From assembly GCA_942493105.1 (NCBI GenBank), contig OW818668.1:390001-422000 (forward strand): DNA of 32,000 nucleotides, given 5' to 3'. Positions within the stretch are counted from its first letter, which is position 1. Each line of letters starts with the position of its first letter. The notes under the pieces are model-generated. The model ran no database searches and was not told the DNA's origin. It saw only the letters and a list, made by a program, of their open reading frames with translations. Origin of the DNA: an uncultured Erysipelotrichaceae bacterium. GTDB taxonomy: Bacteria; Bacillota_I; Bacilli_A; Erysipelotrichales; Erysipelotrichaceae. Both the position numbers and the translations under genes were made by a program. Positions 2,545 through 26,256 of this stretch are shown here, piece by piece.

Positions 2545-4917
2545 CTATAAGTTTTTTACATTCATTACTCGCATTGCATTAAATACGGCCAGCAACGCAA
2601 CTCCGGTATCGGCGAATACGGCTTCCCACATCGTAGAGATCCCATATGCCCCTAACACCAAGAAAACCAATTTTACCGCCATTGCAAAGAATATATTCTG
2701 AAGGACGATTTTTCGAGTCTTTCGAGCAACGCGAATCGCTGTTGCCACTTTAGAAGGTTCATCCGTCATAATAACAATATCTGCTGCTTCGATAGCAGCA
2801 TCAGAACCTAATCCCCCCATTGCAATTCCGATATCAGCTCTCGCTAAAACTGGGGCATCATTAATCCCATCACCAACAAATATAACCTTTCCCTTCTTCG
2901 ATTTTGTTTCACTCAGTTTTTCAAGTTGATCCACTTTATCGGCAGGCAACAATTCAGAGTAAACTTCGTCAATTCCAAGAAGCTTTCCAATCTTTTCGCC
3001 AACTACTTTGGTATCGCCAGTTAACATAGCAATTTTGTGAATACCAAGTGATTTTAATGCCTTAATCGCTTCTGCTGCATCCGTTTTCACTTCATCCGAA
3101 ACGACGATGTAACCCGCATATTTGTGGTCTATGCCCACATGGACGATCGTCCCTAACGTATCGGGATTATTGACTTCTATGTTCTGCAATGCCATCAGCT
3201 TTGTATTTCCAACTAGAATCTCTTTCCCTTTAACCGATACCTTCATCCCGTGTCCTGGGATTTCTTCATAATCACTCACTAGATCACCATCAATACTTTT
3301 TCCATACGCGACCATGATTGATTGTGCAATCGGGTGATTGGACAAACTTTCAGCATAAGCAACAGTTTCAACCAGTTCGTCACTGGAATAGCCACCCTGC
3401 GAGTTTACCTCAGTCACTTTGAAAACACCTTTGGTTAATGTACCCGTTTTATCAAAAACGACTGTTTCAACATTGTTTAGAGCATCTAGATAATTACTGC
3501 CTTTAACTAAAATCCCTCGCTTCGACGCGCCACCAATGCCTCCAAAGAATCCTAAAGGTATTGAAATCACCAAGGCACAAGGACAAGAAATTACCAAGAA
3601 AACAAGCGCTCTATAAACCCAAGTTTCAAATGTAGCACCTGGGATCGTCAGAGGAGGAATAATGGCCAATGCTAACGCAGCAAATACCACAACAGGTGTA
3701 TAGTATTCTGCAAACCTGGTAATAAACTTCTCGGTAGGTGCTTTTTTGCTGCTGGCATTTTGGATCAAATCAAGGATCTTAGTCACGGTTGACTCAGCAA
3801 AACTTTTGGTTACTTCAATTGTCAGAACACCATTTTTATTGATAAATCCACTAAGCGCAACACTTCCAACTTCAAGTTCTCTTGGAACCGATTCACCCGT
3901 AAGTGAGGCTGTGTCAACCATGGAGCGCCCTTCAATGACTTGACCGTCAAGTGGAATTCGTTCACCTGGTTTGACTACAATGATGTCGCCAACATTGACT
4001 TCTTCCGGCGAGACCTTCTTAAGATCGTTATCAGTTTTAAGGTTTGCATAATCAGGTCTAATATCCATTAATGAAGTTATTGACTTTCTGGAATGGCCAA
4101 CTGCTAAATCTTGAAATAGTTCACCCACCATATAAAAGAGCATAACGGCAACCCCTTCAGGGTATTGCCCAATAGCAAAGGCACCAATTGTTGCAACACT
4201 CATCAGGAAAAACTCGCTAAACACTTGTCCTCGCACGATACCCTTAACTGCCCGTATGACGACATCACCACCGACAATCAAGTAACTCAGCATAAAAACC
4301 AGGAACTCAAAGGGTTCCGGGAACGCAAAAATCAACCCAATCGCATAGATCAAACCGCCTATTACGAACTTGATAACTTTCTTTTTGATATCCTCATTTT
4401 CATCTTCTATCTCTTCAGCTTTCACTTTGACGTTTTCAAGTGACGAATTTTTTGTAGCTTTAGTCTGAAGAATCTTTATATCTGGTTCAATTTTTTTCGC
4501 AATTTCAGAAACCTTCGAGTTCAGGGAGACAAGATCAACACCGTCATGAGTTCTCATGGTTAATTTCTGAGTAACAAAATCTACGTTGACTGATCTAACC
4601 CCTTCTAATCTACTAACTTCATTTTCAATTCTTGTTGCACAACTGGCGCAAGAGAGTCCCTCAAAATCAACAATCTGATTCACAGCTTTACGATTTTCTT
4701 GTTCAACCATGACAACATCCGGTTCATATTTACTGATAATTTTTTTAGCAGCCGAGATTGTAGACTCAACTTTAGTTAGTTCCATGTTAAGCGTCATAGT
4801 TTTCGTCGCTACATTTACTGACGCATCAACACCGTCTAGTTTATTAATGTCATTCTCGATCTTTGCTGCACAATTGGCACAATCAAGCTCTTTAAGTAAA
4901 AACGTTCTTGTTTCCAT
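2545..4917 (-). CDS. cadA: P1B-type heavy-metal ATPase, Cd/Zn/Pb (CadA-like), with two N-terminal HMA domains
   Basis: HMA motifs DCANCAAKIE and LSCASCATRIE, TM CPC motif (SCPCALVISIP), DKTGTLT phosphorylation site and the GDGINDAP hinge. Sits directly downstream of a CadC-like ArsR/SmtB regulator. Confidence 0.9.
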   Translation of the reverse strand: METRTFLLKELDCANCAAKIENDINKLDGVDASVNVATKTMTLNMELTKVESTISAAKKIISKYEPDVVMVEQENRKAVNQIVDFEGLSCASCATRIENEVSRLEGVRSVNVDFVTQKLTMRTHDGVDLVSLNSKVSEIAKKIEPDIKILQTKATKNSSLENVKVKAEEIEDENEDIKKKVIKFVIGGLIYAIGLIFAFPEPFEFLVFMLSYLIVGGDVVIRAVKGIVRGQVFSEFFLMSVATIGAFAIGQYPEGVAVMLFYMVGELFQDLAVGHSRKSITSLMDIRPDYANLKTDNDLKKVSPEEVNVGDIIVVKPGERIPLDGQVIEGRSMVDTASLTGESVPRELEVGSVALSGFINKNGVLTIEVTKSFAESTVTKILDLIQNASSKKAPTEKFITRFAEYYTPVVVFAALALAIIPPLTIPGATFETWVYRALVFLVISCPCALVISIPLGFFGGIGGASKRGILVKGSNYLDALNNVETVVFDKTGTLTKGVFKVTEVNSQGGYSSDELVETVAYAESLSNHPIAQSIMVAYGKSIDGDLVSDYEEIPGHGMKVSVKGKEILVGNTKLMALQNIEVNNPDTLGTIVHVGIDHKYAGYIVVSDEVKTDAAEAIKALKSLGIHKIAMLTGDTKVVGEKIGKLLGIDEVYSELLPADKVDQLEKLSETKSKKGKVIFVGDGINDAPVLARADIGIAMGGLGSDAAIEAADIVIMTDEPSKVATAIRVARKTRKIVLQNIFFAMAVKLVFLVLGAYGISTMWEAVFADTGVALLAVFNAMRVMNVKNL

Positions 4918-4919
4918 TT

Positions 4920-5294
4920 TTATTCGTCTCCTTCCGAGATGTGGATCATTCCCTGGTTAAATATATTTTTGACATGATCATCACTTAAGGAATAATAAAC
5001 GATCTTGCCCTCTCTTCTAGACTTCACCAAATTAACTTGTTTTAAAACTTTTAATTGATGAGAAATCGCAGATTGAGTCATGTTGAGCAGAACTGAAATA
5101 TCGCAAACACAAAGCTCTGATTCGTCTAGCGCCCAGAGTATTTTGACCCGGGTTGAATCACTAAAGATCTTGAATAACTCTGCAAGATTAAACAAAACCT
5201 CTTCATTCGGCATCTTAGTTCTCACATGATTCACGATTTCATCATGAATCACGACACAATCACACTGTTCTACTATTTGATTTCTTTCTGCCAC
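4920..5294 (-). CDS. cadC: ArsR/SmtB-family metalloregulator (CadC-like)
   Basis: Has ELCVCDISVLL...SAISHQLKVL (an HTH with a CVC metal site) and N-terminal Cys residues (EQCDCVV). I place the start at GTG 5294, which has GGAGG at 5304-5308. The ORF-track ATG at 5330 has no SD and would sit about 13 nt from the predicted TSS. Confidence 0.85.
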   Translation of the reverse strand: MAERNQIVEQCDCVVIHDEIVNHVRTKMPNEEVLFNLAELFKIFSDSTRVKILWALDESELCVCDISVLLNMTQSAISHQLKVLKQVNLVKSRREGKIVYYSLSDDHVKNIFNQGMIHISEGDE

Positions 5295-5325
5295 TGTCTG
5301 TTTCCTCCAGAATCTTGAACACTTG

Positions 5326-5379
5326 AACATATATTCATATGTTGTCTAGATTATAATACATGATTAAAGCTATTGTCAA
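5326..5379 (-). promoter_or_regulatory. cad promoter with an overlapping inverted-repeat operator
   Basis: Minus strand: TTGACA (5379-5374), 18-nt spacer, TATAAT (5355-5350). A 7-4-7 inverted repeat AACATAT-gaat-ATATGTT (5343-5326) follows at about +1 to +18, the usual position for an ArsR/SmtB operator. Confidence 0.65.
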
Positions 5380-9292: not shown

Positions 9293-9628
9293 TTCTTTCT
9301 AAATAACACAAATCAATATGCAACTTCTCAATTCCCTTAAGGAACTGATATTTTTCAAATGCTATGCTATTATAAAGCATCCATTTATATAAGTGTGTTT
9401 TACTATCTCTCACATCCTTTCAGTCTGTACAACAAGACCAATAAACAAGTAATCATCTGCGAGAATCGCTATTTGCTCTTAAAGACTTTCATTTAGTTAT
9501 AGCGCGTAGATATTATATATTCCGACTAGATACACCCAGTCTTAAAACTTACTCCAAATAGCCCTATAACGACTTATATTTAAGACACAATTAATCGATA
9601 CTCTTGCACCTTTTTCGAAGAAATTTGA

Positions 9629-9663
9629 ATCTCCATATATTCTACATAACTATTCGCTATAGT
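9629..9663 (+). promoter_or_regulatory. direct-repeat (7-4-7) activator box plus -10, promoter P5
   Basis: ATCTCCA (9629-9635), TATA, TTCTACA (9640-9646), 11 nt, TATAGT (9658-9663). Same geometry as four other sites in the window (see findings). Confidence 0.6.
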
Positions 9664-9692
9664 GATGATGTCGAAAGACATGGAGGTTATCA

Positions 9693-9788
9693 ATGCTTGG
9701 TCAAGCACTAGCAAATTGCATTCATACCTGTGGGCTTCACGGGCAAGAATTAGCAGCTTGTATTCAGATGATGCTTAAAGGATTCTAA
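9693..9788 (+). CDS. unannotated 31-aa Cys/His/Met-rich small protein MLGQALANCIHTCGLHGQELAACIQMMLKGF
   Basis: ATG at 9693 with GGAGG (9682-9686) at 6-nt spacing. Promoter P5 lies about 30 nt upstream and a perfect 12-bp terminator hairpin about 100 nt downstream. It is below the ORF-track length cutoff. Confidence 0.5.
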   Translation: MLGQALANCIHTCGLHGQELAACIQMMLKGF

Positions 9789-9891
9789 CAAACTTACTGC
9801 TTCGAATCTTGGTGTAATCTAATTTCTTCATCCCTTCTCCCCCCCTAAATGGTCCTTGAATTAACACAACCAAGATTATTGACTAACTACG

Positions 9892-9922
9892 AAAAAGAGT
9901 TTATGCAGGATAAACTCTTTTT
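9892..9922. terminator. bidirectional terminator hairpin
   Basis: Perfect 12-bp stem aaaaagagttta/taaactcttttt with a 7-nt loop. Confidence 0.7.
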
Positions 9923-9960
9923 CATATTTGAAAGGAATCACTAACATTCTTAATCAATAA

Positions 9961-9987
9961 AAAAGCTAGGATTTGATCCTAGCTTTT
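9961..9987 (-). terminator. terminator of the cueP-copZ-SHOCT operon
   Basis: Perfect 12-bp stem aaaagctaggat/atcctagctttt with a 3-nt loop. On the minus strand it is followed by TTTTTTATT, 8 nt after the stop at 9995. Confidence 0.75.
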
Positions 9988-9994
9988 AGCTTAT

Positions 9995-10642
9995 CTATTT
10001 CAGCACTTCCAACATTCTCGAATATTCTTCTCGTGTGATCTCACCACGTGCATATCTTTGTTTTAGAATATTAAGTGCGTTGTTGTCAGTAGAGATTGTT
10101 TGTTGTTTCGAATTTCGAGTGAGTAGATATACAACCACGCCGACCAGGGCAATTAACCCAAGCAGACCGACGATCATCCAAACCCAACCGAAACCACCCA
10201 TCATGCCTCCATACCCAGGTAAGGTACCAATCTGGTTACTATAATATCCGTAGCCACCCATCATACCTCCATACGCCATCATGCCTCCGGCTCCCATGAA
10301 AGTCATCATCGTGATGGGGATACCAGCCAAATAGTCATATCCAACTCTGATATGAACTGCTGTTAAAGATGCTGAACCATCACCACCTAAGGCAATGTCC
10401 ATTCTGTCGTGAACCGCGGTATTTCCGATAACTTTTTCCATAACTGAATCACCAAGCTCTTCAAGTCGAGCTGAGGTCACTTTCGAGATATCAATTTGAT
10501 CAGTACTGGAAATACTCTGTTCTTGTCTTATTTCTGCAATAATCGTATCAACACTCTTTAGTTGCATGCTATCAGCCTTGACACTGACAATGGTAAACAT
10601 CATTAATCCTAAGACAAACGTAAACGAGACTAATTTCTTCAT
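9995..10642 (-). CDS. secreted/membrane-anchored Gly/Met-rich protein with a C-terminal SHOCT domain
   Basis: Signal peptide; His/Met-containing ectodomain (GNTAVHDRMDIALGGDGS...VHIRVG); GGMM-type repeats (GAGGMMAYGGMMGGYGYY...GYGGMMGGFGW); one TM helix; C-terminal ILKQRYARGEITREEYSRMLEVLK (SHOCT signature). Confidence 0.75.
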   Translation of the reverse strand: MKKLVSFTFVLGLMMFTIVSVKADSMQLKSVDTIIAEIRQEQSISSTDQIDISKVTSARLEELGDSVMEKVIGNTAVHDRMDIALGGDGSASLTAVHIRVGYDYLAGIPITMMTFMGAGGMMAYGGMMGGYGYYSNQIGTLPGYGGMMGGFGWVWMIVGLLGLIALVGVVVYLLTRNSKQQTISTDNNALNILKQRYARGEITREEYSRMLEVLK

Positions 10643-10931: not shown

Positions 10932-11513
10932 CTATGAAAGCTTTAGTGGGGTTGTTAAGCAGGTATCACTTTTTGCATAAGTTGTAATGGTTTTGGTAAC
11001 AGATAACCCATTATAACTTATGGTCAATGTCGCTTCGATATCCCTAGGCAACCAAATCCCTATGAAACCAGAATTCATGCTCTTTACTTTCTGATCTGTT
11101 ATTACCGTTCCGTCCTTTTTAACAATAGAAACATTGAATTCTTTGTTGAATAGTTCTCCTCGGCAGGACACTAAGTTATGTGTTTGGCAAGGATGAACTT
11201 CATTAATATAAGGCGCGAATGATAGATAAAATTCATTGGTGGGAAGCTTGAAATCGTATTGTTTATCGTTGTCATAAAGAATAAGAGTTGTTCCAGTAAT
11301 GGAAGCATTGAGTCCATCTTTCTCATTGGTTATACTATCGAGCTTATTAACCATATCCTTAACGCTGAGATCAGCAAGACCGTATTTCTTAAGCATTTCT
11401 GCTCTTGCTTCATTTGGAGCAAAAAGTTTTGGCACCAATATGAATGAGGATATCACTATGGCTCCTACTACTGCGACAAATGTAATGGTTTTTTTGAGTG
11501 ATGATTTTATCAT
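10932..11513 (-). CDS. membrane-anchored CueP-family metal-binding protein
   Basis: Start reassigned to MIKSSLKK... at 11513, which has an AAGGAG SD; the ORF-track extension to 11597 runs over the promoter. N-terminal TM helix. Three Cys residues are spaced 8 and 68 residues apart (HPCQTHNLVSC ... SDTCL). As I recall, this matches the C96/C104/C172 spacing of Salmonella CueP. Confidence 0.6.
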   Translation of the reverse strand: MIKSSLKKTITFVAVVGAIVISSFILVPKLFAPNEARAEMLKKYGLADLSVKDMVNKLDSITNEKDGLNASITGTTLILYDNDKQYDFKLPTNEFYLSFAPYINEVHPCQTHNLVSCRGELFNKEFNVSIVKKDGTVITDQKVKSMNSGFIGIWLPRDIEATLTISYNGLSVTKTITTYAKSDTCLTTPLKLS

Positions 11514-11582
11514 TGTTCTCCTTAGATTAAAATCCAGTCGATCATAGTATGATCGTTCAATCCGATCTCTTTCTATATCTCG

Positions 11583-11617
11583 ATTATAGGATCGCAATTT
11601 GTAGAAGTTATGTAGAA
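11583..11617 (-). promoter_or_regulatory. direct-repeat activator box plus -10, promoter P1 (cueP-copZ-SHOCT operon)
   Basis: Minus strand: TTCTACA (11617-11611), TAAC, TTCTACA (11606-11600), 11 nt, TATAAT (11588-11583). No -35 hexamer. Confidence 0.7.
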
Positions 11618-11647: not shown

Positions 11648-13036
11648 TCATTTAGGAAGTATTACGGTAAAAGTACTGCCCGTGCCCACTTCACTTTGAA
11701 CTTCGACATGTCCGCCATGGGCCATCACAATGGATTTGACGATCGTCAATCCGATGCCGGAACCTCCTGTTGCTCTGTTTCTCGATTTATCAGCACGATA
11801 GAAACGCTCGAAGATATAGGGTAATTCATCTTGAGGGATTCCACTTCCATTATCAACAACATCCATAATCACTTCATGGTCCGTTTCCGAGAATTCGATG
11901 TTTATTAAGCCTTTAGGTTGAGTATATTTAATCGAATTGGTCAGCAAGTTGATGATGACTTGGGTCATTCTTGCAGGATCAACATGAACCCTTGAACATG
12001 ACCCATTGATCGACACTTTCATTTCTTTTTCTTTGATTTGATATTCGAGTTTCTCAACTCCTTGTTTTGTTAACTCAACCAAATCGGCATCTGTCTTTTC
12101 CAACTTAAGATTTCCATCTTCAACGATGGCTAAACTTTCTAAATCTTTTACGATATTTGTAATGCGAAGCACCTCATCATAACTGCTTTTAAGCCGTTCA
12201 GGAGAGGGTTCTAGCAGTCCGTCCATCATTGCTTCAATAGTTATTCTGAGCGTTGTGAGGGGGGTACGCAGCTCATGGGCCACATCTGAAGTCAACTGCT
12301 TCTTCAAACTTTCTTGTTTATCCAACGAACCGGCCAGCTGATTCACTGACTCGATCAAATTATCTACTTCAGTGAGCTTTGATTTCTCTTGGATCCTGAT
12401 TTTATAATCGCCTTGAGAGATTTTTTCGGTTGCCAAAATGGTTGTCAAAATGGGCATACTGATTCGTCGAGAGATCAAATAACCCAGGATAAGAGATATC
12501 AATAGCGATACTGCACCAACCAGAAGTAAAATTGAACTTAATTGACTCAAGAAGTCAAAATCGTTATCGGAATAAAAATAGGGTCCAAAATAGGTCACAT
12601 TGACTCTTCCAATTTGTTGCGAAGACAATTCGATGGAATAATCCGTAGCACTGAATTTACCATTACTTCCTGGAAATTTGGATAACATGTTGTGTGTAAT
12701 GTCTTCTTTGATTTGCACGCAGGTCGACATATCCCACACTTCAGCATCCCAGACAGATTTGTTGCTATCATCAAAAACCTTGATGATGTATCCGTCATAA
12801 AGTGCATACATACCAATGGTATGCACATATTCTACATTCCAAGTTTTCGTCTCAGGATTGTACTGTTGTCCCAAACTATAAACGATCTCATTGATGGAGG
12901 CCTGTTGCTGCTTGGTAATGTACTCTTTGAATTGCTGATTGATAAAATAACTGGACAATGAACTGATGATCGCAATCAAAACAAGCGCAACAGCAGCGAT
13001 TGATAATGTAAGTCTTGATCTTAAACTGCCTTTCAT
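11648..13036 (-). CDS. sensor histidine kinase (2 TM, about 130-aa extracytoplasmic loop, HAMP, HisKA, HATPase_c)
   Basis: H-box VAHELRTPLT, N/G boxes (LLTNSIKYT, DNGSGIP, GGSGIGLTIVKSIV), and two hydrophobic helices flanking a large loop. Confidence 0.9.
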   Translation of the reverse strand: MKGSLRSRLTLSIAAVALVLIAIISSLSSYFINQQFKEYITKQQQASINEIVYSLGQQYNPETKTWNVEYVHTIGMYALYDGYIIKVFDDSNKSVWDAEVWDMSTCVQIKEDITHNMLSKFPGSNGKFSATDYSIELSSQQIGRVNVTYFGPYFYSDNDFDFLSQLSSILLLVGAVSLLISLILGYLISRRISMPILTTILATEKISQGDYKIRIQEKSKLTEVDNLIESVNQLAGSLDKQESLKKQLTSDVAHELRTPLTTLRITIEAMMDGLLEPSPERLKSSYDEVLRITNIVKDLESLAIVEDGNLKLEKTDADLVELTKQGVEKLEYQIKEKEMKVSINGSCSRVHVDPARMTQVIINLLTNSIKYTQPKGLINIEFSETDHEVIMDVVDNGSGIPQDELPYIFERFYRADKSRNRATGGSGIGLTIVKSIVMAHGGHVEVQSEVGTGSTFTVILPK

Positions 13037-13735
13037 TTACTGACCTCCAAACTTATATCCGATGCCATGTACGGTGATGATGTAAACTGGATTTCTCGGA
13101 TCTGTTTCGATTTTCTGTCGGATATTTTTGATGTGACTATCAACGGCACGATCATAACCTTCAAAATCTTCGCCTAAAGCAATCTCTATGAGTTCTTCTC
13201 GAGTGAAAGTTTTGTTGGGGAACTTGATGAGCGAGGCGAAAATTCTAAATTCATTAGGTGTAAAGTTTACGGTGTTGAGTTTCTTGGTGACAATTCGGTT
13301 CTCGAAATCAACGACCAAATCTGAATTACCAAAAATACTCTTTTGATAAAGCGGTGTTAAATCATCTTTGGACCGACGCAATACTGCTTCCATTCTTGCG
13401 TTAAGCTCTTTTAAACCAAAAGGTTTGGTGATGTAATCATCTGCTCCATAATCAAGCCCATTAACCAAATCAGCTTCTGTGACTTTTGCTGTCAGCATAA
13501 TAATCGGAATTCTTGATAGTTGCCGGATTTTCATGCAAACTTCTTCCCCTGAAATACCTGGCAACATTAAATCGAGCAAAACCAACGAGATCTGATTCTT
13601 TTTAAACAACTCAAAACCATGTTCACCATTTTCGGCAGTGATTACTTTATATCCCTTAGATTCAAGGAAAGTTTTCACGATCTCAATGATCTTAACCTCA
13701 TCATCAATAATCAAAATGGTTGGCTTTTCGTTCAT
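13037..13735 (-). CDS. OmpR/PhoB-family response regulator
   Basis: Receiver domain (ILIIDDE...DLMLPG...TAK) plus a winged-helix C-terminus (LTPNEFRIF...VHGIGYKF). Its stop abuts the kinase start. Confidence 0.92.
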   Translation of the reverse strand: MNEKPTILIIDDEVKIIEIVKTFLESKGYKVITAENGEHGFELFKKNQISLVLLDLMLPGISGEEVCMKIRQLSRIPIIMLTAKVTEADLVNGLDYGADDYITKPFGLKELNARMEAVLRRSKDDLTPLYQKSIFGNSDLVVDFENRIVTKKLNTVNFTPNEFRIFASLIKFPNKTFTREELIEIALGEDFEGYDRAVDSHIKNIRQKIETDPRNPVYIITVHGIGYKFGGQ

Positions 13736-14040: not shown

Positions 14041-15427
14041 TTACTCAATGACGTTTACTGAGCTTCTAATCATGCCCATCCAACAGTTGTACGAGAGTTT
14101 TCCAGTTTTGGTTGGAGTAAATTCCAGAACATTATCCCCTTCTTCAAGTTGGTACTGAATTCCCAATGACTTGATTTCAAATCGATAATTACAGCCTGTT
14201 AATTGATCTGTTCCAACATGAATGGTCCATTTTACCGGGACACCTACTTTGACCGTGATGGGTTCATAGCTTCCGTTATATACCTCACTGGTCACTGTTT
14301 GAACACCATTTTCAACAACAGCCGCATTTCCAGAACTACTACCACTCCCAAAGTTGAACAAGTTGCTTACAGAAAAGGACGGTAATTGAATGCCTGAAAC
14401 GGCCATTCCGGTTTGAAACATTGCGAAACCTAAAACGATAACCAACACTGCACTAACTTGCATCATTTTAGCTGTGAACTGTTTACTTAGAAATGAACTT
14501 AATGCACCGAGTCCAAACATCAGCGGAACGGTTCCTAAGCTAAATACCAACATCGACAAGGCGCCTTTAACTGGATCCCCGGTTGATAAGGCATATAGTT
14601 GCATTGCTTGTAAAGGACCACAAGGCATTAAACCGTTCAATAGACCAACATAGAACGGGCGATTCTTACTGACACCTTTCTCTTTACCGATCAATCTGGC
14701 AAAGATCTTAGGCATCCGAGGATTGAATTTTCTTAAGCCTGGAAAAATATTGAGCATGTTGATTCCCATGATAACCATGAAGATACTTGCGCCGATCGCA
14801 ACGATGCCTTTAGCTGGACCAGAGAAACTAACGACTGATCCTAAAGCACCAACTACACCACCAATGATGGTATAAGAAACCACTCTTCCAAGCATTGTAT
14901 AAAATGCTTGGCATGAAGTTGTTTATTCCGCCTTTATCAGTATTTTCAGCTTTTTGTGGGATACACTGCGATAAGTTAATACCACCGCACATGGCGACAC
15001 AATGGACAGAGGTCAAGATTCCAATCACAAACAAAACACCATAACTCATCCCGGCTTTCGCTTCAGGGAATACATTGAAAACATTCAGTAGGCCAAACTT
15101 GTTGGCAATCATGTACAAAATATACAAGATAACAAAGATGGTCAAGATGTCGATCAGTTTCTCTTTTGTGCTGACTGTTTTCGCGCCAGTTAAAGTAGGA
15201 GTATTCGAATTACCTTTCACTTTATAATCTAGGGACTCAATCGCTCTTTTTATTTCACGAAGACTAATGACATCATCATGATAGTTTACTCGAACTGTAT
15301 TGGTTGAATAACTGGCTTTTACGCTGATGATTCCGCCGGTTTTACGAAGTTTGCTTTCTATGCGGTTTTCACAGCCGACACAGGTCATTCCTTCGATTTG
15401 AAGTGTTTTTCTTTCGAACTTTTCCAT
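14041..15427 (-). pseudogene. frameshifted HMA domain + TauE/SafE (DsbD_2-like) membrane domain + C-terminal cupredoxin-like domain protein
   Basis: ORFs 14828-15427 and 14041-14895 are the two halves of one gene. The N-part has GMTCVGCENRIE and TM helices. Its reading ...PSILYN then shifts frame to LGRVVSYTIIGG.... Removing one nt near 14893 (TAC AAT g CTT GGA) restores the family motif YNLGRxxSY. The C-terminus carries a C...YNCWMGM motif. Confidence 0.75.
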
Positions 15428-15793: not shown

Positions 15794-16123
15794 CTAGTTA
15801 CCAATTTGGTGCAATCGTTTTATCGAAACAAACAACTCATCGATGGTTTGATCGTCGATCTCACCTGGTTTATCTTTCAGACAAGTCTGAACATGATTCT
15901 CAAGGATCATTCTTCCTACAGAATACAAGGCAGATTGTACTGCGTTGACTTGAATCAGAATATCATCACAGTACTCTCCTTGGTTTACCATTTTGTTTAT
16001 TCCTCTGATTTGACCTTCGATCTTGCGAAGTCTAAGATCCAGGTCTTCACTTTTACACCGGGAACGACTTACAGCAACTTGTATATTTCTAAGTATCGGT
16101 TCGTCAACTTCGTGCGATTTCAT
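15794..16123 (-). CDS. csoR: CsoR-family copper-sensing repressor
   Basis: RLRKIEGQIRGINKMV...YCDDILIQ...ENHVQTC. This gives the C-H-C ligand pattern of Cu(I)-sensing CsoR/RcnR (DUF156) proteins. Confidence 0.85.
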   Translation of the reverse strand: MKSHEVDEPILRNIQVAVSRSRCKSEDLDLRLRKIEGQIRGINKMVNQGEYCDDILIQVNAVQSALYSVGRMILENHVQTCLKDKPGEIDDQTIDELFVSIKRLHQIGN

Positions 16124-16126
16124 TTT

Positions 16127-16795
16127 CTATTTTAAGTTGAAGGGTTTTAATAGCTTTTCAACTTCTACTTTTTTTCCAGAAGCATCCATGACTTCAACCT
16201 TTGCGAAAATCCATCCTTCGACATTGGCTACATCAACACCTGCATCCGAGAAGACCTTAGGATCAAGAACGAATACAATATCTTTATCATTAGCTGCTAA
16301 ATCTTTAGCCCATTCGAACTTATTGCCATCGCCCAAATCAATACCGTAATGGGCAAGTGCCTCATGATAACCCAAGGTATCTCTGCTCAGTTTTACAAGT
16401 TCCTTGAAAGAGGCTTCCGGTGTAGCTTGGGCGGTTGCTGAGAAATCTTGTTCACCCAATGTTTGACCCACCATAATCATGCCATCGGCAAACATACCTG
16501 CCGGGAGTTTTGTAACATCCAAACCTGCATCAATAAAGGGTTGAGCATCAGTTTCAAGCATGACATCATGAGGTGCTGTTGTCTTAAAATTAGTACTAAA
16601 CAGGAATCGAGATGATCCATCCGGAGCACTTAGTGACCATGCATTCAGTTCTGAATCAGATGTGACATCCGACAATGCTACAACTTCATTGAAGGATGAA
16701 ATCCCATATTTAGCGATAACATCAGTTTGCGTACAAGCCGACAGTGCGGCTAAGACTAAAGCAGAAACTCCAGAAACGATTATAAATTTTTTCAT
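16127..16795 (-). CDS. lipoprotein of unknown function with an internal two-fold duplication
   Basis: Lipobox LSACTQ. The two roughly 95-aa halves align (SSFNEVVALSDVT/ASFKELVKLSRDT; PFIDAGLDVTKLP/VFSDAGVDVANVE). It is tightly packed between copA and csoR. Confidence 0.7.
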   Translation of the reverse strand: MKKFIIVSGVSALVLAALSACTQTDVIAKYGISSFNEVVALSDVTSDSELNAWSLSAPDGSSRFLFSTNFKTTAPHDVMLETDAQPFIDAGLDVTKLPAGMFADGMIMVGQTLGEQDFSATAQATPEASFKELVKLSRDTLGYHEALAHYGIDLGDGNKFEWAKDLAANDKDIVFVLDPKVFSDAGVDVANVEGWIFAKVEVMDASGKKVEVEKLLKPFNLK

Positions 16796-16833: not shown

Positions 16834-19278
16834 TTAAGTCTTAAAGCGTTGGTTAACACAGAGACTGAAGATAAAGACATGGCTGCTGCTTGCGAAGACC
16901 GGGTTCAATACCGGACCTCCAAATATATAGAGGGCTCCAGCCGCTAATGGAATCCCTAAGACGTTGTAGGCAAAGGCCCAAAACAGATTCTGTTTGATGT
17001 TTCGAATCGTACTCTTGCTCAATTGAATGGCAGTAGGTACTTCCATCAAATCGCTTCTCATAAGTACGATGTCTGCAGATTCCATTGCTACATCAGTTCC
17101 AGAGCCTATGGCTATACCTACGTTGGCTTGAACAAGTGCCGGAGCATCATTGATACCATCACCAACCATCGCTACGATTCGACCTTCACTTTGAATTTTC
17201 TTAACTTCAAATGCTTTGTCTTGAGGTAATACTTCCGACAAGACGCGATCAATGCCAACCTGTTTAGCGATTGCCGCAGCAGTCTTTTTGTTGTCACCCG
17301 TGATCATGACAGTTTGAATGCCCATTTTATTGAGTTTCTGAATGGCTCGGGCACTGCTTGGTTTCACAACATCTGCAACCGCAATAATTCCGGCAAATCT
17401 ACCTTCAACCGCAATGAACATCGGAGTTTTTCCCTGATCCGCTAAATCGTCAGAGATTTTCTCAAATTCGTTAAGTTCAATGTTGTTTTCTCGGATCAGC
17501 TTCTGATTACCAAGTAATACAGAGAGTTGATTGATTTTCACTTTGATCCCATGTCCTGGAATCGCTTCAAAGGAATCAATATTTTGAAATTCCAGTATGT
17601 CTTGTTCAGCTCTTCTAACGATTGCTTGACCAAGAGGGTGTTCAGACCCCTTCTCGGCAGATGCTGCGATCTGAAGGATTAGCTCTTCAGCCAGAAATCC
17701 CGGAACAGTCACGATGTCTGTGACTGCAGGTTTACCTTCTGTAAGTGTGCCCGTTTTATCAAAGACAATCGTATTGATTTTGTGTGCTGTTTCAAGGGCT
17801 TCACCGCCTTTAATCAGGATTCCATTTTCTGCGCCTTTTCCTGTTCCAACCATGATTGCGGTCGGTGTTGCCAACCCAAGAGCACAAGGGCAAGCGATAA
17901 CCAGAATGGCAATAAAAATTGATAATGAGAAGGTCACTGTTTGGCCACTGATGAACCATGCAAGAGCAACTACGGTAGCAATAATGAAGACGATAGGAAC
18001 AAAGTATCCTGAGACGATATCAGCCAGCTGGGCAATCGGTGCTTTTGAACCTTGAGCATCTTCTACCAGTTTTATAATCTGTGCCAGCGCAGTATCTGCG
18101 CCAACTTTGGTAGCTTTGAAATGAATCATTCCGTTTGTATTGAGGCTGGCTGCATAGACAGCATCTCCGATTTTCTTTTCAACCGGCATGCTTTCACCTG
18201 TCAGCATCGATTCATCAATCGCGGTATATCCAACTGTGATTTGACCATCGACTGGGATCTTCTCACCCGGCTTGACAATAAGTACATCACCTACTTCTAC
18301 TTCTTCCACCGGGATTACAACTTCTTCTCCGTTATGGATCACAAGGGCTGTTTTGGGAGCCAAACCCATTAATTTCTTTATGGCTTCTGATGTTTTCCCT
18401 TTGGAAACTGATTCAAGATATTTACCCAACAGGATCAATGAAATAATGACCCCTGCTGTTTCGAAATACATGTTGTTTACAGCTGCAAAATCACCGATTG
18501 AGATGAGATATGTTGCGTATAAACTATAAAGGACAGCCGCTGTTGTTCCCATTGCGATCAAAGAATCCATATTGGGTGATCTATGCCAAATCGCTTTGAA
18601 TCCAACCACGTAGAATCGGTTACCGGCAATCAGCACCGGAATAACAAGCAAGATCTGTGTATAGGCAAAGACCAAAGGATATTTCATAGGATCAAGGAAT
18701 CCCGGAACAGGCAAAGATAACCATTTGATCATCGGGGCCATAGCCAAGTAAAGCAATGGAATACTGAATACTGTCGAAACAACGAACTTAATCCATAATA
18801 CTTTGATTGCTTTTTGTTTTCTTGCCTTATCTTCATCTACCTTATCCACACCAATACTTTCGAGTGGTTTGTAACCGATCTTTATAATCTCAGATTTGAT
18901 CTGAGAAAGCCGGATGATGGATGGGTCATAATGGATAGTTGCTTTTTCTGTTGCGAGATTGACGTTGGCAGATATTACCCCATCCAATTTGGAAACTGTC
19001 TTTTCTATTCTTTGAGCACACGAAGCACAAGTCATTCCTTCGATGGGCATCGTGATTTGTTTTTCAGTTTGATCAGCGTGAAGTTCATATCCCGCTTTAC
19101 TGACTGAACTTTGGATATCGACCAACTTGATTATTGAATCATCGTAACTCAATGTTAATTTTTCCGTCGCGAAGTTAACGCTCGATTCCGTAACACCAGT
19201 TAATTTTCTGGTAACTTTTTCTATCCTCTGTGCGCAAGCTGCACAAGTCATCCCTGTTATGCTAAGAGTTTGTTGCAT
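16834..19278 (-). CDS. copA: Cu(I) P1B-1 ATPase CopA with two HMA domains; its C-terminal roughly 25 codons are out of frame (possible pseudogene or sequencing error)
   Basis: MTCAACAQ and [11 protein letters not shown] motifs, [17 protein letters not shown] and GDGINDAP. The annotated tail ...[23 protein letters not shown] is non-canonical. The adjacent frame reads [25 protein letters not shown] and ends at 16812, which is the canonical CopA terminus. Confidence 0.85.
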
Positions 19279-19395: not shown

Positions 19396-19430
19396 AGTTT
19401 ACAAATTAGATATGTAGAACTTATGTAGAA
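19396..19430 (-). promoter_or_regulatory. direct-repeat activator box plus -10, promoter P2 (copA operon)
   Basis: Minus strand: TTCTACA (19430-19424), TAAG, TTCTACA (19419-19413), 11 nt, TAAACT (19401-19396). Confidence 0.7.
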
Positions 19431-19532: not shown

Positions 19533-21806
19533 TTAGTCAATCTTCAATAATCTGGCATTGATCGAGACGATGATTGTGCTGAGTGACATAAAGACGGCAC
19601 CCATTGCTGGACTAATGACGATTCCTTGGTTGATCAATATACCAGCTGCTAATGGCAGAGCAATGATATTGTATCCGGTCGCCCAAAGCAGATTCTGAAT
19701 CATCTTACGATAAGTTGCCTTGGATAGTTTCAGTATATTGACTACGTCCAACGGGTTACTCTTGACCAGGATTACATCTGCTGTTTCAATCGCAACATCA
19801 GTTCCTGCCCCGATCGCAATACCCAAATCTGCCAAAGCCAGCGATGGAGCATCATTGATGCCATCTCCGGTCATGGCAACCTTCTTGCCCGACTTGATCA
19901 AGTCTTTAATCTTGTTCGCTTTATCTTGAGGTAGAACTTCGGCGATGATTTGATCAATACCAATCTTTTTACCTACATAATTGGCAACCTTTGTGTTGTC
20001 TCCTGTCAGCATGATGGATTCAATATGCATTAACTTTAGCGTGGCTACAGCTTCAATTGCAGAGTCTCTAATGATATCCGACAACGCGATATATCCCTTT
20101 AAAGATCCATTATCAAGTACGAAGATCACCGTTTTTCCTTCAGCAGCCAATTTTTCATAATTTGTTTTATCAAAATCGATATTCTCAGAAATCATATACC
20201 CTGGACTCACAATCCTGATTTCACGTTCAGAAACTTTTGCGATAAGCCCTTTTCCAGGTAAAGCTTGGTAGTCTTTAACTTCTAGTAATTCAAGATACCT
20301 TTTCTTACCAGCTTTTACTAATCCTTTGGCAATGGGGTGTTCAGAGTTAGATTCTACTGAATAAACGAGAGTCAGCAATTCATTTTCTGAATAACCTATA
20401 GAAACAATGTCAGTGATTCCAAATTCGCCTTCAGTCAATGTTCCTGTTTTATCGAAGACCACGGCATTCAGTTTACGCGCTTCTTCAAAGGCAGCTCTGT
20501 TTCTGATTAATAAACCTTTCTTTGCTCCAATGCTGGTTGAAACAGCCGTTACTAAGGGTGTAGCCAATCCTAAAGCATGGGGGCAAGAAATGATAATAAC
20601 AGTAACAGCACGTTCGATCGCGAAACTCAGATCTTTGCCTAACATAATCCATACTGTGAATGTGGTGATACCACTGACAACAGCAATATAAAATAGCCAC
20701 TTCGCTGCCACATCGGCTAAACGTTGCGTGTTGGATTTTGATGCCTGCGCTTCTCTAACGAGCTTAATGACTTGAGATAGGAAAGTGGCTTCTCCGACAC
20801 GTGAGACAGTAAACTTTAGGACACCCTCTCCATTGATTGAACCGCCAATGATTTCGTCACCAACTGCCTTTTCTACAGGAACTGATTCCCCGGTCATCAT
20901 GGATTCATTCACTGAAGAGATACCTTCGTAAATGATGCCATCGAGTGGAATCTTTTCACCTGGTTTTACAAGCACTTTGAATCCTACCTTAAAGTGTCCA
21001 ACTGGATGATCCATGACATCACCGTTATCATGAATCATGTGGGCCACATCGGGCATGAGCTTGACTAATTCCTCTAAGGCTTTAGATGCACCCATAACAG
21101 ATTTCATTTCGATCCAATGACCGAGCAACATGATTGTGATCAGGGTTGCCAATTCCCAGAAGAAATCACCACCAGTCAGAACAAAGACAGTCAAAGCACT
21201 ATATATGTATGCAACCGAAATCGCGAGTGCAATCAACATCATCATAGCAGGCGCCTTCTTTTTCAATTCATCTAAGGCACCTATCAAGAATGGTTTTCCT
21301 CCATAGACAAATAGGATGGTGGACAGAGTAAACAGAATATAGGTATCACCAGTAAAGCGCCAGTTAACATTCATAAACATTTGAATCATTGGCGATAACA
21401 GTAAAACAGGTACGGTAATAAAAAGTGATACAAAGAAACGTCGTTTAAAATCATTAACCATCATCAAGTGATGATCATGATGATCTTCGTGGCCGACATG
21501 GTCATCATGTCCTTCATGATCTTTTGAACCATGATCCATTTTACTGTGATCCATGGAGTTGTGAGCCATCTTGTTGTGATCCATCATGTCGTGATCTGTT
21601 TTACTATGGTCCATGGAGTCGTGAGCCATCTTGTTGTGATCCAGCATGTCGTGATCCGTTTTACTGTGGGTCATAACATGATGTTCTCCCACACCAGTTT
21701 CAGGTTTGGTTCCATGTTCATGGTTATTCATTTTACTATGATCTTTTTCGCGATTTTTAAAATTTTCTTTGTAATGATTATCAACATCTATTTTCTTATC
21801 ATTCAT
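19533..21806 (-). CDS. copB: CopB-type (P1B-3, CPH motif) copper ATPase with a His/Asp/Met-rich repetitive N-terminus
   Basis: [26 protein letters not shown] and a C-terminal [15 protein letters not shown]. About 110 N-terminal residues are rich in H, D and M. Confidence 0.9.
21516..21668 (-). repeat. in-frame 60-bp tandem repeat (2 full copies plus a partial) inside the copB 5' region
   Basis: Encodes [20 protein letters not shown] / [20 protein letters not shown] / [11 protein letters not shown]. The DNA copies at about 21609-21668 and 21549-21608 differ at only a few positions. Confidence 0.85.
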
Positions 21807-21851: not shown

Positions 21852-21886
21852 ATCATAACACCATTCTGTGTATGAGATATGTAGAG
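21852..21886 (-). promoter_or_regulatory. direct-repeat activator box plus -10, promoter P3 (copB)
   Basis: Minus strand: CTCTACA (21886-21880), TATC, TCATACA (21875-21869), 11 nt, TATGAT (21857-21852). Confidence 0.6.
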
Positions 21887-22014: not shown

Positions 22015-22275
22015 TTAAACTAAGTCTTTCATATACTGTTCATATTGCTCTTTTGTAATCTCGCCTTTGGCATAACGACTCTTTATGATATCAATTGCTG
22101 ATCTACTGGAGTTCACTTCATAAACTCTTTCATGGTCATGTGCAGTTCCATGAGACATTCTTACAACTCCAAGAACAATCAACACAATAACGATGATGCA
22201 AATAAATCCGCCAAACCACATAAAGCCACCCATCATTCCATATCCCCATCCAAAATTTCCAAATCCGCCCATCAT
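22015..22275 (-). CDS. small Gly/Met/Trp-rich membrane protein with a SHOCT domain (86 aa)
   Basis: Start reassigned to MMGGFGNFGWGYGMMGG... at 22275, with a GAGGAAAG SD 8 nt upstream. The ORF-track extension to 22371 overlaps the P4 -10. One TM helix and a C-terminal IIKSRYAKGEITKEQYEQYMKDL (SHOCT). Confidence 0.7.
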   Translation of the reverse strand: MMGGFGNFGWGYGMMGGFMWFGGFICIIVIVLIVLGVVRMSHGTAHDHERVYEVNSSRSAIDIIKSRYAKGEITKEQYEQYMKDLV

Positions 22276-22366
22276 GATGCTTTCCTCTGACGATGTGATT
22301 CGTATAAACGAAATCTCTTCATCGCCGTTACTTTCTTTTTGAACACAAGAACGTGTTTCTAAAAAC

Positions 22367-22401
22367 ATCATATCAACAATATGTTACGAAAGTGTGTAGA
22401 A
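22367..22401 (-). promoter_or_regulatory. direct-repeat activator box plus -10, promoter P4 (SHOCT-2)
   Basis: Minus strand: TTCTACA (22401-22395), CACT, TTCGTAA (22390-22384), 11 nt, TATGAT (22372-22367). Confidence 0.5.
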
Positions 22402-22645: not shown

Positions 22646-23623
22646 TCATAAATGGGATTTAATATACTTAATAACTTTATCCATTTTGGCAAGACTCTCC
22701 TCATCAACAAGTAAATTGCAGTCAATGTCTGATCTTAACTTTTTCATCGACCTCAATGCACTTTCTCTGATCTTCAGTTGAGTTATCTTACCTGCACTGT
22801 TTAAACGCACATCAGTCGTTCTAGGTGGGTATTTTTTTCTCGGCGGTGCAACAATAGATTTGAAATTTGCCTTGGTTTTTTCATTGATATACTTCGTATT
22901 TCGATTTTTGGATGAACAATGAAAATACGTATCCTCTTCCATTTGCCTGGCGATATCGTAGAAATCCGATTTACTAAATGACAGCATTAGATTTATCATT
23001 GCCAGATTCAGATACCCAAGTCTGAATTGAGTGGTAAGATAATGATCAAAATCACGGGCAATCCTAATGAGGATATAAGCTTGTTTATCTCCGATATGCA
23101 ATGTATCAGCGAGGATCTCATTCGTCCTTCTTTGATGGACTGAAGGAATCTTCTTGTCTCGCATGACTTCGATTGCAGAAGTAATATACCGTGATTCAAC
23201 GAATTTTTGAAATATCGTTTTTTCTCTATCTTTTTCATTGTCAGAAATAATATACAAAACACTTTCCTCATAACTTAAAATCCTAAAGTAAAAACTCCTA
23301 ACCGATCTGAACTTTTCCAAACCTCTTTTTTCTACAAGGAATTTCAAAGCCTCGCATCTTCTATGCCCCTCCACAATCAAAAATCGTTTATCGTTTTTTG
23401 GATTTACTATGATCGAGATTGGGACTATGAGACCATACTCTTCGATATCATCTGCCAAAGAGCGAATTTGCCTTTGGTAGTCTTCTGAATTCAGTTCCAT
23501 GTCGTTATTTGGATGCGGATCAAAGCTATAGATATCTTCAATACCAAATAAACTTTTAGGTTCTTTAAAAATGTTATTTTGAGTATTCGAATTTGGCATC
23601 CCTTTGGCAACATGATCCTCCAT
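22646..23623 (-). CDS. ParB/Srx-fold N-terminal domain protein with a central HTH (KorB/ParB-like)
   Basis: IEDIYSFDPHPNN...LADDIEEYGLIVPISII...FLIVEGHRRCEALKFL matches the ParB N-domain pattern (GxRRxxA box). Start taken at the second ATG (23623), which has an AGGGAG SD. No parA was seen. Confidence 0.7.
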   Translation of the reverse strand: MEDHVAKGMPNSNTQNNIFKEPKSLFGIEDIYSFDPHPNNDMELNSEDYQRQIRSLADDIEEYGLIVPISIIVNPKNDKRFLIVEGHRRCEALKFLVEKRGLEKFRSVRSFYFRILSYEESVLYIISDNEKDREKTIFQKFVESRYITSAIEVMRDKKIPSVHQRRTNEILADTLHIGDKQAYILIRIARDFDHYLTTQFRLGYLNLAMINLMLSFSKSDFYDIARQMEEDTYFHCSSKNRNTKYINEKTKANFKSIVAPPRKKYPPRTTDVRLNSAGKITQLKIRESALRSMKKLRSDIDCNLLVDEESLAKMDKVIKYIKSHL

Positions 23624-23662
23624 TGGAGATTCTCCCTTCATAAAGAAAAGGAAATGACTTCC

Positions 23663-24810: not shown

Positions 24811-25932
24811 CTACTTCTTCCTTTTATTATTTATGAAATTGATCGCCTCCTTGTCAGCTGTAGGCATGAGATGAGTGTAGACTTTCAATGTCATATCAAT
24901 ACTAGAGTGGCCCAGACGTTTTGAAACAACTACGATATTAACTCCATTCCCAATGAGTTCACTCGCATGTGAATGCCTGAAATCATGGATTCTGATCCTT
25001 GTAATACCGGTTGACTTGATTGCCTTATTCTTGAGTCTTTCTATCGTAGTATCGGAGAACGGTAGCCCTCTGTCATCTGGTCTTCCAAAGATGAATTCCA
25101 ACTTGTCAAAATCTTCTAATTCCGTTCGATAGTCTTTAACTCTTTTAATCATCTCAAATGTTTGATCATCAAGTGGAATGGTGCGAATCGAACTTGGTGT
25201 CTTTGGAACGCGTACTTTCGGTTTCTCACCAGTATATTTACCGGATACAGTTTTGTTGAAGTTGATGGTTTTGCTTACATAGTCAATATCTGTAAAACGT
25301 AAAGCTTGCACCTCCCCTCGACGAGCCCCTGTATTGAACAAAACATTATAAAACGTCTTCCAAAGAAACTGCTCATTGTCTGATCCCTCAAAACAACTTT
25401 CGAACTTCTCAAACTCTTCTCTAGACATGATTTTGCCGACCTTGTCCACCTCCACATTTTCCTTAACCGATCTCAGGACAACACATGGGTTATCCTTTAG
25501 GTTAAAATATGTTTCGGCGTGTTTAAACAGATACTTGAAATGTGCTGTAATATCATTCTTGTACCTTGGTGCTGTTTTCGGATCCTTCTGAATTTCCTCC
25601 ATCCATTGCCTGACCTTCATCTTTGTAATCTTATCAAGAGGCATATCCCCAAAGGTTGGTAAAATGTATATCCTAAAAATTCTTTCCTTTCCGGCAGTTG
25701 TGGTTGAAGTATTGTAGACCTTATCATTGCTGATATAATCGTCCACTATTGTTTTGAGGGTCATCAATCCAACAGGGTTCTCAAGAATCTTCTTTACCAA
25801 CAACTCCCCAGCCTCGCGAGCATCTCGTTTTGATGTAAACCCAGCTTTATACTTTTCTTCTACTTTAAGTGTGTTAGGATTTTTTATCTTGATTCTATAG
25901 AAGAATCCACCCTTTGCTGACTTGCCAACCAT
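24811..25932 (-). CDS. int: tyrosine recombinase (phage/ICE integrase) with an N-terminal arm-type DNA-binding domain
   Basis: Catalytic residues in ...GARRGE..., HDFRHSHAS, GHSSIDMTLKVYTH (R-H-R-Y). N-terminal FYRIKIKNPNTLKVEEKYKAGFTSKRDAREA resembles the AP2-like arm-binding domain. Lies about 240 bp from a tRNA 3' end. Confidence 0.92.
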   Translation of the reverse strand: MVGKSAKGGFFYRIKIKNPNTLKVEEKYKAGFTSKRDAREAGELLVKKILENPVGLMTLKTIVDDYISNDKVYNTSTTTAGKERIFRIYILPTFGDMPLDKITKMKVRQWMEEIQKDPKTAPRYKNDITAHFKYLFKHAETYFNLKDNPCVVLRSVKENVEVDKVGKIMSREEFEKFESCFEGSDNEQFLWKTFYNVLFNTGARRGEVQALRFTDIDYVSKTINFNKTVSGKYTGEKPKVRVPKTPSSIRTIPLDDQTFEMIKRVKDYRTELEDFDKLEFIFGRPDDRGLPFSDTTIERLKNKAIKSTGITRIRIHDFRHSHASELIGNGVNIVVVSKRLGHSSIDMTLKVYTHLMPTADKEAINFINNKRKK

Positions 25933-26173: not shown

Positions 26174-26256
26174 TGGTGCGCGTGAAGGGACTCGAACCCA
26201 TATGGTTGCCCGCTAGATCCTAAGTCTAGTGCGTCTGCCAATTTCGCCACACGCGC
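26174..26256 (-). tRNA. tRNA-Leu (anticodon UAG), class II with a long variable arm, encoded CCA
   Basis: Hand-folded: acceptor GCGCGTG/CACGCGC; 3-bp D stem with GG in the loop; anticodon stem CTAGA/TCTAG with loop CTTAGGA; long variable arm; T-loop TTCGAGT (one U-U mismatch in the T stem); 3' ACCA. Confidence 0.9.

Follow-up and report, generated by a model that had tools for sequence, protein, structure and literature searches.

Accounts of copper homeostasis in Firmicutes usually centre on the CopY and CsoR repressors, the CopA and CopB pumps and CopZ. Small copper-induced proteins that buffer copper include PcoE/SilE, CopM and CusF, which are two-component-controlled, and MymT, a metallothionein of mycobacteria. 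In Corynebacterium glutamicum, a copper island is regulated by the OmpR-family protein CopR, which binds two 9-mers with an 11-bp period and whose footprinted site is TGAAGATTTgaTGAAGATTT (PMC3140484). Here we analyse a 32,000-nucleotide stretch of an uncultured Erysipelotrichaceae bacterium (assembly GCA_942493105.1, contig OW818668.1, positions 390,001 to 422,000), referred to as the window, whose own positions are used throughout. In this window, a two-component system with a clear operator box appears to control a mobile copper island, and the best-conserved target of that control is a 31-amino-acid protein encoded at 9693-9788 on the plus strand, a size skipped by most annotation pipelines and for which no family model exists. 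The protein is conserved across genera and founds a family of Firmicute small proteins that had not been described before, and copper binding by it is plausible.

The small gene and the elements that accompany it are laid out as follows.

9631-9648, plus strand: direct-repeat box, CTCCATATATTCTACATA / CTCCATAtattCTACATA, two 7-mers with an 11-bp period (CTCCATA-tatt-CTACATA), of response-regulator type and in place of a -35 element
9658-9663, plus strand: -10 hexamer TATAGT, 9 nt after the box
9670-9679, plus strand: mini-hairpin GUC-GAAA-GAC in the 5' untranslated region (UTR), predicted in the fold of 9670-9930 and lying at the predicted 5' end (~9670)
9682-9686, plus strand: Shine-Dalgarno (SD) sequence GGAGG, with a 6-nt spacer to ATG 9693
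9693-9788, plus strand: small-protein gene, 31 amino acids, MLGQALANCIHTCGLHGQELAACIQMMLKGF, from ATG 9693 to the stop codon at 9786-9788
9805-9877, plus strand: 3'-UTR stem (9805-9813 with 9869-9877) enclosing the mostly unpaired C-rich UCCCUUCUCCCCCCCU (9831-9846), found in the window's clade only
9892-9922, plus strand: intrinsic terminator with a 13-bp A/T-rich stem (AAAAAGAGTTTAT / ATAAACTCTTTTT), a 5-nt loop and the U-run UUUUUCAU

A preliminary description of the locus, made from the letters alone, had recognised a complete monocistronic unit here, and the analysis supports it: the positions given for the open reading frame (ORF), the GGAGG and the hairpin were all confirmed in the sequence, the box on which the promoter was said to depend is real, and the terminator stem is indeed perfect, although it measures 13 bp and not 12. 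No in-frame start codon is present upstream of ATG 9693 in the window sequence. Eighty-nine ORFs of at least 25 amino acids lie between 6 and 14 kb of the window, i.e. within 8 kb, so that an ORF of 31 amino acids is by itself within chance. The case for a gene therefore rests on its conservation across genera.

A phmmer search of 1.84 billion representative proteins returned 10 matches at E<=1e-3, of 29-39 amino acids and 55-94% identity. Homologues of that same length were found in 65 fetched loci, with a strong SD in nearly all of them. In species-representative genomes, pattern scans with tblastn confirmation yielded 28 loci, in Erysipelotrichaceae and Erysipelothrix metagenome-assembled genomes (MAGs), Mageeibacillus, Eubacteriales, Paenibacillus rhizophilus and the Clostridium species C. 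vincentii, C. carboxidivorans P7, C. algoriphilum, C. polyendosporum and 'Ca. C. radicumherbarum'; one of the 28 is on a contig binned as Solirubrobacterales. A metagenome scan added 24 further loci, and the frame of 29-34 codons is intact in all 28 genome and all 24 metagenome loci. The SD of the genome loci is GGAGG, GGAGA or GGTGG in 26/28 and AGAGG or GGGAGG in 2/28, followed by the start codon 5-8 nt on; most metagenome loci likewise have a GGAGG-type SD. Plasmids (PLSDB) gave nothing, either by blastn of 9300-10000 or by tblastn of the peptide. Loci L015 and L016 are paralogues in MAG WSYG01, where two separate cop islands hold one copy each.

The gene had been called unannotated. This is true of family models, since Pfam gave no match for the peptide at E<=1 and none for 14 members at E<=10, and no NCBIfam model covers it, but the exact peptide has already been gene-called publicly, for example as KAF0224461.1, a 'hypothetical protein' of an Erysipelotrichaceae MAG. 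In a collection of 15 billion proteins it falls in a 90%-identity cluster of 5 sequences that includes this entry; the exact peptide was called on 8 independent metagenome contigs, and 4 close variants were called on others. Literature searches found no description of the peptide, and a 2023 review of Gram-positive small proteins is silent on copper.

Selection was analysed on 33 distinct coding sequences. Entropy at codon positions 1, 2 and 3 is 0.63, 0.46 and 1.19, the third being the most variable, and the mean non-synonymous value (pN) is 0.21 against a synonymous value (pS) of 0.75 (pN/pS 0.29); dN/dS is ~0.24 over unsaturated pairs. The codons of the invariant Cys switch between TGT and TGC among homologues, and peptide identity remains at 55-80% across genera while synonymous sites are saturated. 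Loss of the frame in syntenic loci had been named in advance as the outcome that would speak against a gene; the frame is kept, and it is under purifying selection. The analysis shows that 9693-9788 is a genuine, evolutionarily constrained protein-coding gene, functionally uncharacterised.

The family consensus is M-x-G-x-x-L-A-x-C-I-H-x-C-G-x-x-G-x-x-L-A-x-C-I-x-M-M-L. Among 49 unique sequences, C9, I10, G17, L20 and M27 are invariant (49/49), G3, G14, C23 and I24 are each present in 48, A7 and A21 each in 46, and M26 in 44. C13 is also found in 44/49, with Ser or Met in its place in one Erysipelotrichaceae sub-clade. The two His to which the preliminary description had drawn attention do not hold up as a feature: H16 occurs in 18/49, i.e. 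it is not conserved, and H11 occurs in 35/49 and lies on the polar face in a helical wheel.

The promoter box was found by aligning the 120 nt upstream of all copies of the small ORF. The box at 9631-9648 has 0 mismatches to CTHCATANNNNCTMCAYA; the general form is CTHCATA-N4-CTMCAYA and the Clostridium version is CTTCATAatatCTACATAa. At the small-ORF promoter a -35 element is absent, no TTGACA-like hexamer being found 16-18 nt from the -10. The box recurs elsewhere in the window, which also encodes the protein presumed to bind it.

11598-11615, minus strand: box before the CueP-CopZ-SHOCT operon, followed after 9 nt by TATAAT; same position in 8-9 related loci
19411-19428, minus strand: box before the CopA-type ATPase operon (16834-19278), with the same 9-nt gap
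21867-21884, minus strand: box with 1 mismatch before the second copper P-type ATPase (19533-21806), with the same 9-nt gap
11648-13735, minus strand: histidine kinase (HK; 11648-13036) and OmpR-family response regulator (RR; 13037-13735), from Pfam and NCBIfam, presumed to provide the box binder

All 4 boxes of the window stand at a uniform 9-nt gap from their hexamers (TATAGT, TATAAT, TAAACT or TATGAT), and each faces a cop gene or the small ORF. The earlier suggestion that the small gene is regulated together with the cop genes is supported by a box common to both. A fifth box-like match, at 3264, lies within a coding region, carries 2 mismatches and has no promoter context. Tandem repeats with an 11-bp period that replace the -35 element are a hallmark of OmpR/PhoB-type activators, and here we find tandem repeats of ~11 bp, a -35 element replaced at a fixed distance from the -10, and a box shared across operons. 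In every island locus of Erysipelotrichaceae, the HK-RR pair is found linked to the small ORF. Judging from this co-occurrence, the repeat is probably bound by the OmpR-family member of the island's two-component system, in its phosphorylated form, which would switch on all four promoters.

A survey of 34 non-redundant loci (427 kb, at most 1 mismatch) found 49 boxes. In 26 of these, and in 26/34 loci, a small-ORF start codon follows 57-68 nt past the box. Another 18 precede CueP, the CopA-type ATPase, a conserved 222-amino-acid protein, the DsbD-like gene or the RR, one (in L022) precedes a SHOCT gene directly upstream of the small ORF, and 4 have no assigned gene. In relatives a TATAAT or TATATT hexamer lies 9 nt past the box. 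Stand-alone Clostridium and Paenibacillus copies keep the box, and contig CAZGLV010000001.1 carries two paralogues 1.4 Mb apart, the island copy L018 and the stand-alone, boxed L037; control would therefore be exerted in trans. For Firmicutes, literature searches turned up no account of this box, and it offers a ready means of regulon prediction in any genome.

Two other assignments for the upstream region were tried and rejected. A sporulation-sigma promoter for the Clostridium copies, on account of CATAAT-like motifs near the SD, was dropped because all of these copies have the box + TATAAT geometry, and the WalR and PhoP boxes are incompatible with the invariant CTNCATA half-sites. Loci L044 and L045 appear to be in decay: their box is mutated, their SD is GGAGA and they carry M26I. 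Upstream of 22015-22371, we observed CTACACACTTTCGTAACATA, a box-like variant that also precedes a C23F variant of the peptide in L046.

AlphaFold2, run on a 10-sequence alignment, predicts a helical hairpin with helices at 2-16 and 20-30 (mean predicted local distance difference test score, pLDDT, 80.9) and a G14-x-x-G17 turn, in agreement with the two turn-joined helices of the preliminary description. On helical wheels, L2, L6, C9, I10 and C13 share the hydrophobic face of helix 1, with H11 opposite, and L20, C23, I24, M27 and L28 share that of helix 2. A profile search of PDB sequences at E<=10 gave a single unrelated match; Foldseek gave no Csp match, and its best PDB matches, at E>4, are ribbon-helix-helix hairpins of a generic kind. 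Averaged over 19 residues, Kyte-Doolittle hydropathy peaks at 0.54-0.87, compared with 2.24 for Fst. Since this profile shows no transmembrane (TM) segment and the sequence no signal peptide, the protein is predicted to be cytoplasmic.

These properties bear on whether the ORF could be a type I toxin-like or bacteriocin-like peptide, a chance ORF or the decayed fragment of a larger Cys-rich gene. A length of ~30 amino acids, a strong SD and a convergent neighbour do recall type I toxin loci, but the hydrophobic TM helix typical of such toxins is absent, the promoter is of activator type, and neither a leader nor an export gene is present. A chance or decayed ORF is at odds with a frame under purifying selection, and among the 1.84 billion representative proteins phmmer found no larger homologue of which the peptide could be a fragment. 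We regard this group of explanations as largely refuted already and give it next to no weight.

What, then, would a cytoplasmic hairpin of this kind do? Because a hairpin of 31 residues exposes much hydrophobic surface, self-association is expected, most simply as a dimeric four-helix bundle. The dimer would bury 4-6 thiolates and 2-4 thioethers, a ligand set suited to Cu(I), and these clustered groups would bind the metal. With all four box promoters probably activated by the regulator, the small protein would be made alongside the copper-export machinery when the kinase senses copper. In the cytoplasm, it would then buffer copper or hand it over as a small chaperone during clearance of the metal by the ATPases. 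The Cys/Met ligand set and the co-regulation with copper exporters make this the most economical reading, and the genomic context, with two CopZ, CueP, a CsoR-like repressor and copper ATPases around the gene, speaks for it. Based on a predicted fold and on co-regulation, we put the probability that the hairpin self-associates, binds Cu(I) and acts as a cytoplasmic copper buffer or chaperone at roughly 0.45.

Several observations weigh against this reading. Each chain has few Cys (2-3). In L017, L023, L024, L030 and L035, a sub-clade that is still within copper islands, Ser or Met stands in place of C13, and C23F occurs in the variant L046. The stand-alone Clostridium and Paenibacillus copies lie among unrelated housekeeping genes (HAD/NUDIX, LysE, ABC, GNAT, a DEAD-box helicase and a Na/H exchanger), where the shared box is the sole link to copper. 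The metagenome contigs L050-L055 and L060-L061 have different upstream sequences (e.g. the palindrome GATAGTAACTATC) and weaker SDs, which suggests that other regulators act on the small ORF in those lineages. Finally, two-component copper sensors usually control extracytoplasmic proteins, so that a cytoplasmic output would be atypical.

The same thiols might instead hold another cofactor, with Ag(I), Zn(II), Cd(II) and a bridging Fe-S cluster as candidates, or the peptide might sense thiol stress or, under metal stress, offer its thiols in a sacrificial or redox-active role. With 2-3 Cys per hairpin and 4-6 per dimer, ligation of Zn or of an Fe-S cluster is feasible; the hosts are anaerobes, and in addition to DsbD-like and thioredoxin-like proteins the island encodes a third heavy-metal ATPase together with an ArsR/SmtB-type regulator (2545-5330). 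However, the box-sharing genes that can be named are of copper type (CueP, CopZ and the Cu-ATPases, the 222-amino-acid protein having no assigned function), and with Met27 invariant, a soft Cu(I)/Ag(I) site is more likely than one for Zn or Fe-S. We thus consider another cofactor quite improbable.

A further possibility is that the hairpin acts on other proteins, and here its neighbours are relevant.

9995-10642, minus strand: Met/Gly-rich membrane protein, convergent with the adjacent small ORF and carrying a SHOCT domain at its C-terminus

In Mageeibacillus and Eubacteriales, a small TM+SHOCT gene on the same strand stops 11-18 nt before the small-ORF start (TM+SHOCT/small-ORF pairs: L022 7731-8105; L038 2164-2567; L039 3626-4119; L041 1918-2369; L065 4600-5093), an arrangement consistent with co-transcription of the two. 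In other relatives the small ORF stands at the 3' edge of a SHOCT-CopZ-CueP-HK-RR block or divergent from the CopA-type ATPase. On its other side, the gene is divergent from FTR1 in this window, as had been described, but across loci that neighbour is FTR1, a type I restriction-modification system, ars/Usp or ToxN, and because it varies, FTR1 would not be a functional partner.

The small protein could accordingly be conceived as a protein-protein modulator, either feeding back on the DHp four-helix bundle of the kinase in the manner of Sda on KinA, or binding SHOCT domains or ATPases, with Cys and Met serving as a copper or redox switch or in core packing. Sda is also a free-standing helical hairpin and docks on the DHp domain (PMC10730256). 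The small ORF is the most widely retained box-controlled gene and is kept without nearby cop genes; in L013 it directly adjoins the HK-RR pair, with no CueP, CopZ or SHOCT. In the five loci listed above it lies directly downstream of a TM+SHOCT gene, in the window it abuts a SHOCT protein, and a low Cys count suits a switch more than a store. Against this, the peptide resembles neither Sda nor any Pfam family in sequence, its invariant Cys and Met signature is typical of Cu(I) ligands, and the SHOCT association is not universal. We rate modulation as less probable than the Cu(I) buffer or chaperone, to which it is the main rival. If it were true, it would provide the first functional handle on SHOCT-domain membrane proteins; literature searches found no link between SHOCT and copper.

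The transcript itself was also considered. The terminator hairpin at 9892-9922 folds at about -10 kcal/mol and is followed by a U-run, as expected of rho-independent termination; its stem has just 2 G-C pairs, which is why a generic terminator scan missed it. In relatives it is conserved as a consensus hairpin in which 4 pairs show compensatory double changes (RNAalifold on a MAFFT alignment). At the other end, GTCGAAAGAC, the region of the 5'-UTR hairpin, is kept across the Erysipelotrichaceae clade, and the GUC-GAAA-GAC tetraloop hairpin may be an mRNA stabiliser. A 3' UTR of ~100 nt is found in the window's clade only, most copies outside it having a strong terminator 0-40 nt past the stop.

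Could the locus then be mainly a regulatory RNA, with an incidental or secondary ORF? Firmicute small RNAs (sRNAs) use C-rich loops to pair with SD sequences, and single-sequence folds of 10/10 members of the window's clade predict an unpaired C-rich loop (the UCCCUUCUCCCCCCC stretch) enclosed by a stem of differing sequence. This stem, however, is not recovered by RNAalifold on the MAFFT alignment, which recovers the terminator alone, and is missing from L015 and the Clostridium copies. The Clostridium, Paenibacillus and L015 copies have no long 3' UTR, their terminator lying 0-40 nt past the stop, and Rfam covariance models gave no match at the locus, the only feature of the window to reach threshold being a tRNA (26177-26256). 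Since other clades lack the 3'-UTR stem and yet keep the peptide, at 55-80% identity across genera despite saturated synonymous sites, RNA would not be the main function, and we regard a mainly regulatory RNA as very unlikely. At most, the C-rich stem may be an SD-pairing, sRNA-like module, an RNA function added in one clade. On the minus strand, the mini-ORF MKKLDYTKIRSSKFVRIL in the 3' UTR was rejected as it is not conserved and stops after 3 codons in L016; a 44-amino-acid gene downstream of the small ORF, called by JGI on some contigs, has no conservation support and was set aside as well.

The remainder of the window is a copper island. It encodes two CopZ, CueP, a CsoR/RicR-type repressor (15794-16123), three heavy-metal P-type ATPases, a DsbD-like protein with an HMA domain, thioredoxin-like and FTR1-like proteins and two SHOCT-domain proteins, the second of these being the 118-amino-acid ORF at 22015-22371. 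A tyrosine integrase (24811-25932, minus strand) adjoins the tRNA gene (26177-26256, minus strand), and 22646-23641 encodes a weak RepB-like partition protein. The cluster looks like an integrative genomic island inserted at the tRNA. Three observations concern individual genes. The 221-amino-acid 'CueP' ORF (10932-11615) from TTG 11597 starts within its own promoter (box 11615-11598, TATAAT 9 nt on); because of this, and because relatives call a 193-amino-acid CueP with a GGAG SD, the true start would lie downstream of TTG 11597. The HMA-DsbD-like gene (14041-15427) is split into two overlapping ORFs of 199 and 284 amino acids, with the break in DsbD_2 at profile positions 39/40; in relatives it is one ORF of 450-501 amino acids, and the split is a frameshift that marks either a pseudogene or a sequencing error. 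The 222-amino-acid protein (16127-16795) has no family match, is conserved in cop islands and is often directly box-controlled (L013, L019, L024, L035).

Taking these findings further, the family could be the minimal unit of a new copper-handling class, in which a Cys/Met hairpin of ~30 residues either assembles into a thiolate-lined bundle or acts as a copper-loaded connector on kinase or SHOCT domains; it would be the signature cytoplasmic output of an undescribed Firmicute copper two-component regulon (CTHCATA-N4-CTMCAYA), and in one clade a C-rich regulatory RNA in the 3' UTR would make the transcript dual-function. We offer this wider proposal as a speculative and rather doubtful one. If Cu(I) binding is true, few genetically encoded copper-binding modules would be as small as this hairpin, which is easily synthesised. 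Cultured hosts are Clostridium carboxidivorans P7, whose copy is at NZ_CP011803.1, about 770279-770374, C. vincentii DSM 10228 and Paenibacillus rhizophilus 7197.

How does the small protein compare with known systems? The preliminary description had likened it to a hairpin of the Cys-lined four-helix-bundle copper proteins of the DUF326/Csp type. As a relationship this was not upheld: 14 members gave no Pfam match at E<=10, PF03860 included, no PDB sequence or solved structure related it to that group, Foldseek found no Csp match, and the peptide, with only 2-3 Cys, is not a four-helix-bundle monomer with many core Cys. Like Csp1 and Csp3 (DUF326; PMC5171941), it is helical, directs Cys into a helix-helix interface (here predicted) and is linked to copper tolerance, and like Csp3 it would be cytosolic; a dimer of such small hairpins would also be a four-helix bundle. 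The Csp proteins, however, are four-helix-bundle monomers that form tetramers, as opposed to 31 amino acids in two helices, and Csp3 has many core Cys per monomer as opposed to 2-3, whereas the small protein has a conserved Met partner and two-component control. The analogy holds only as a design logic, that of Cys facing a helical core. CopZ/Atx1, of the HMA fold, is also small, cytoplasmic and encoded in cop clusters, and it binds Cu(I) via two Cys, so that it marks the likely functional niche. It differs in its 68-69 amino acids, its ferredoxin-like fold and its MxCxxC motif, the small protein being all-helical (predicted), and two CopZ genes are already present in the island.

With regard to control, the reverse complement of the box, TGTAGAatataTGGAGAtt, resembles the C. 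glutamicum CopR site TGAAGATTTgaTGAAGATTT, and the half-site TG(A/T)AGA is common to both. CopRS, however, belongs to another phylum and has a single site, while the putative operator described here stands before four or more promoters, each time 9 nt from the -10, and before unlinked small-ORF genes as well. Sda of Bacillus subtilis, too, consists of a few dozen residues folded as a free-standing helical hairpin, and a regulon-encoded protein could feed back on its kinase. It shares no sequence similarity and no Cys/Met signature with the small protein, it is controlled by DnaA rather than by the kinase's own regulator, and, with no Pfam family matched, the generic hairpin fold alone is common to the two. 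Among the small copper-induced proteins named at the outset, PcoE, SilE, CopM and CusF are exported, Met- and His-rich proteins, and MymT is far richer in Cys and under RicR/CsoR-type control; none is known to be homologous to the small protein. Small metal-stress proteins under two-component control are a familiar theme, and within it the 31-amino-acid protein forms a new family.

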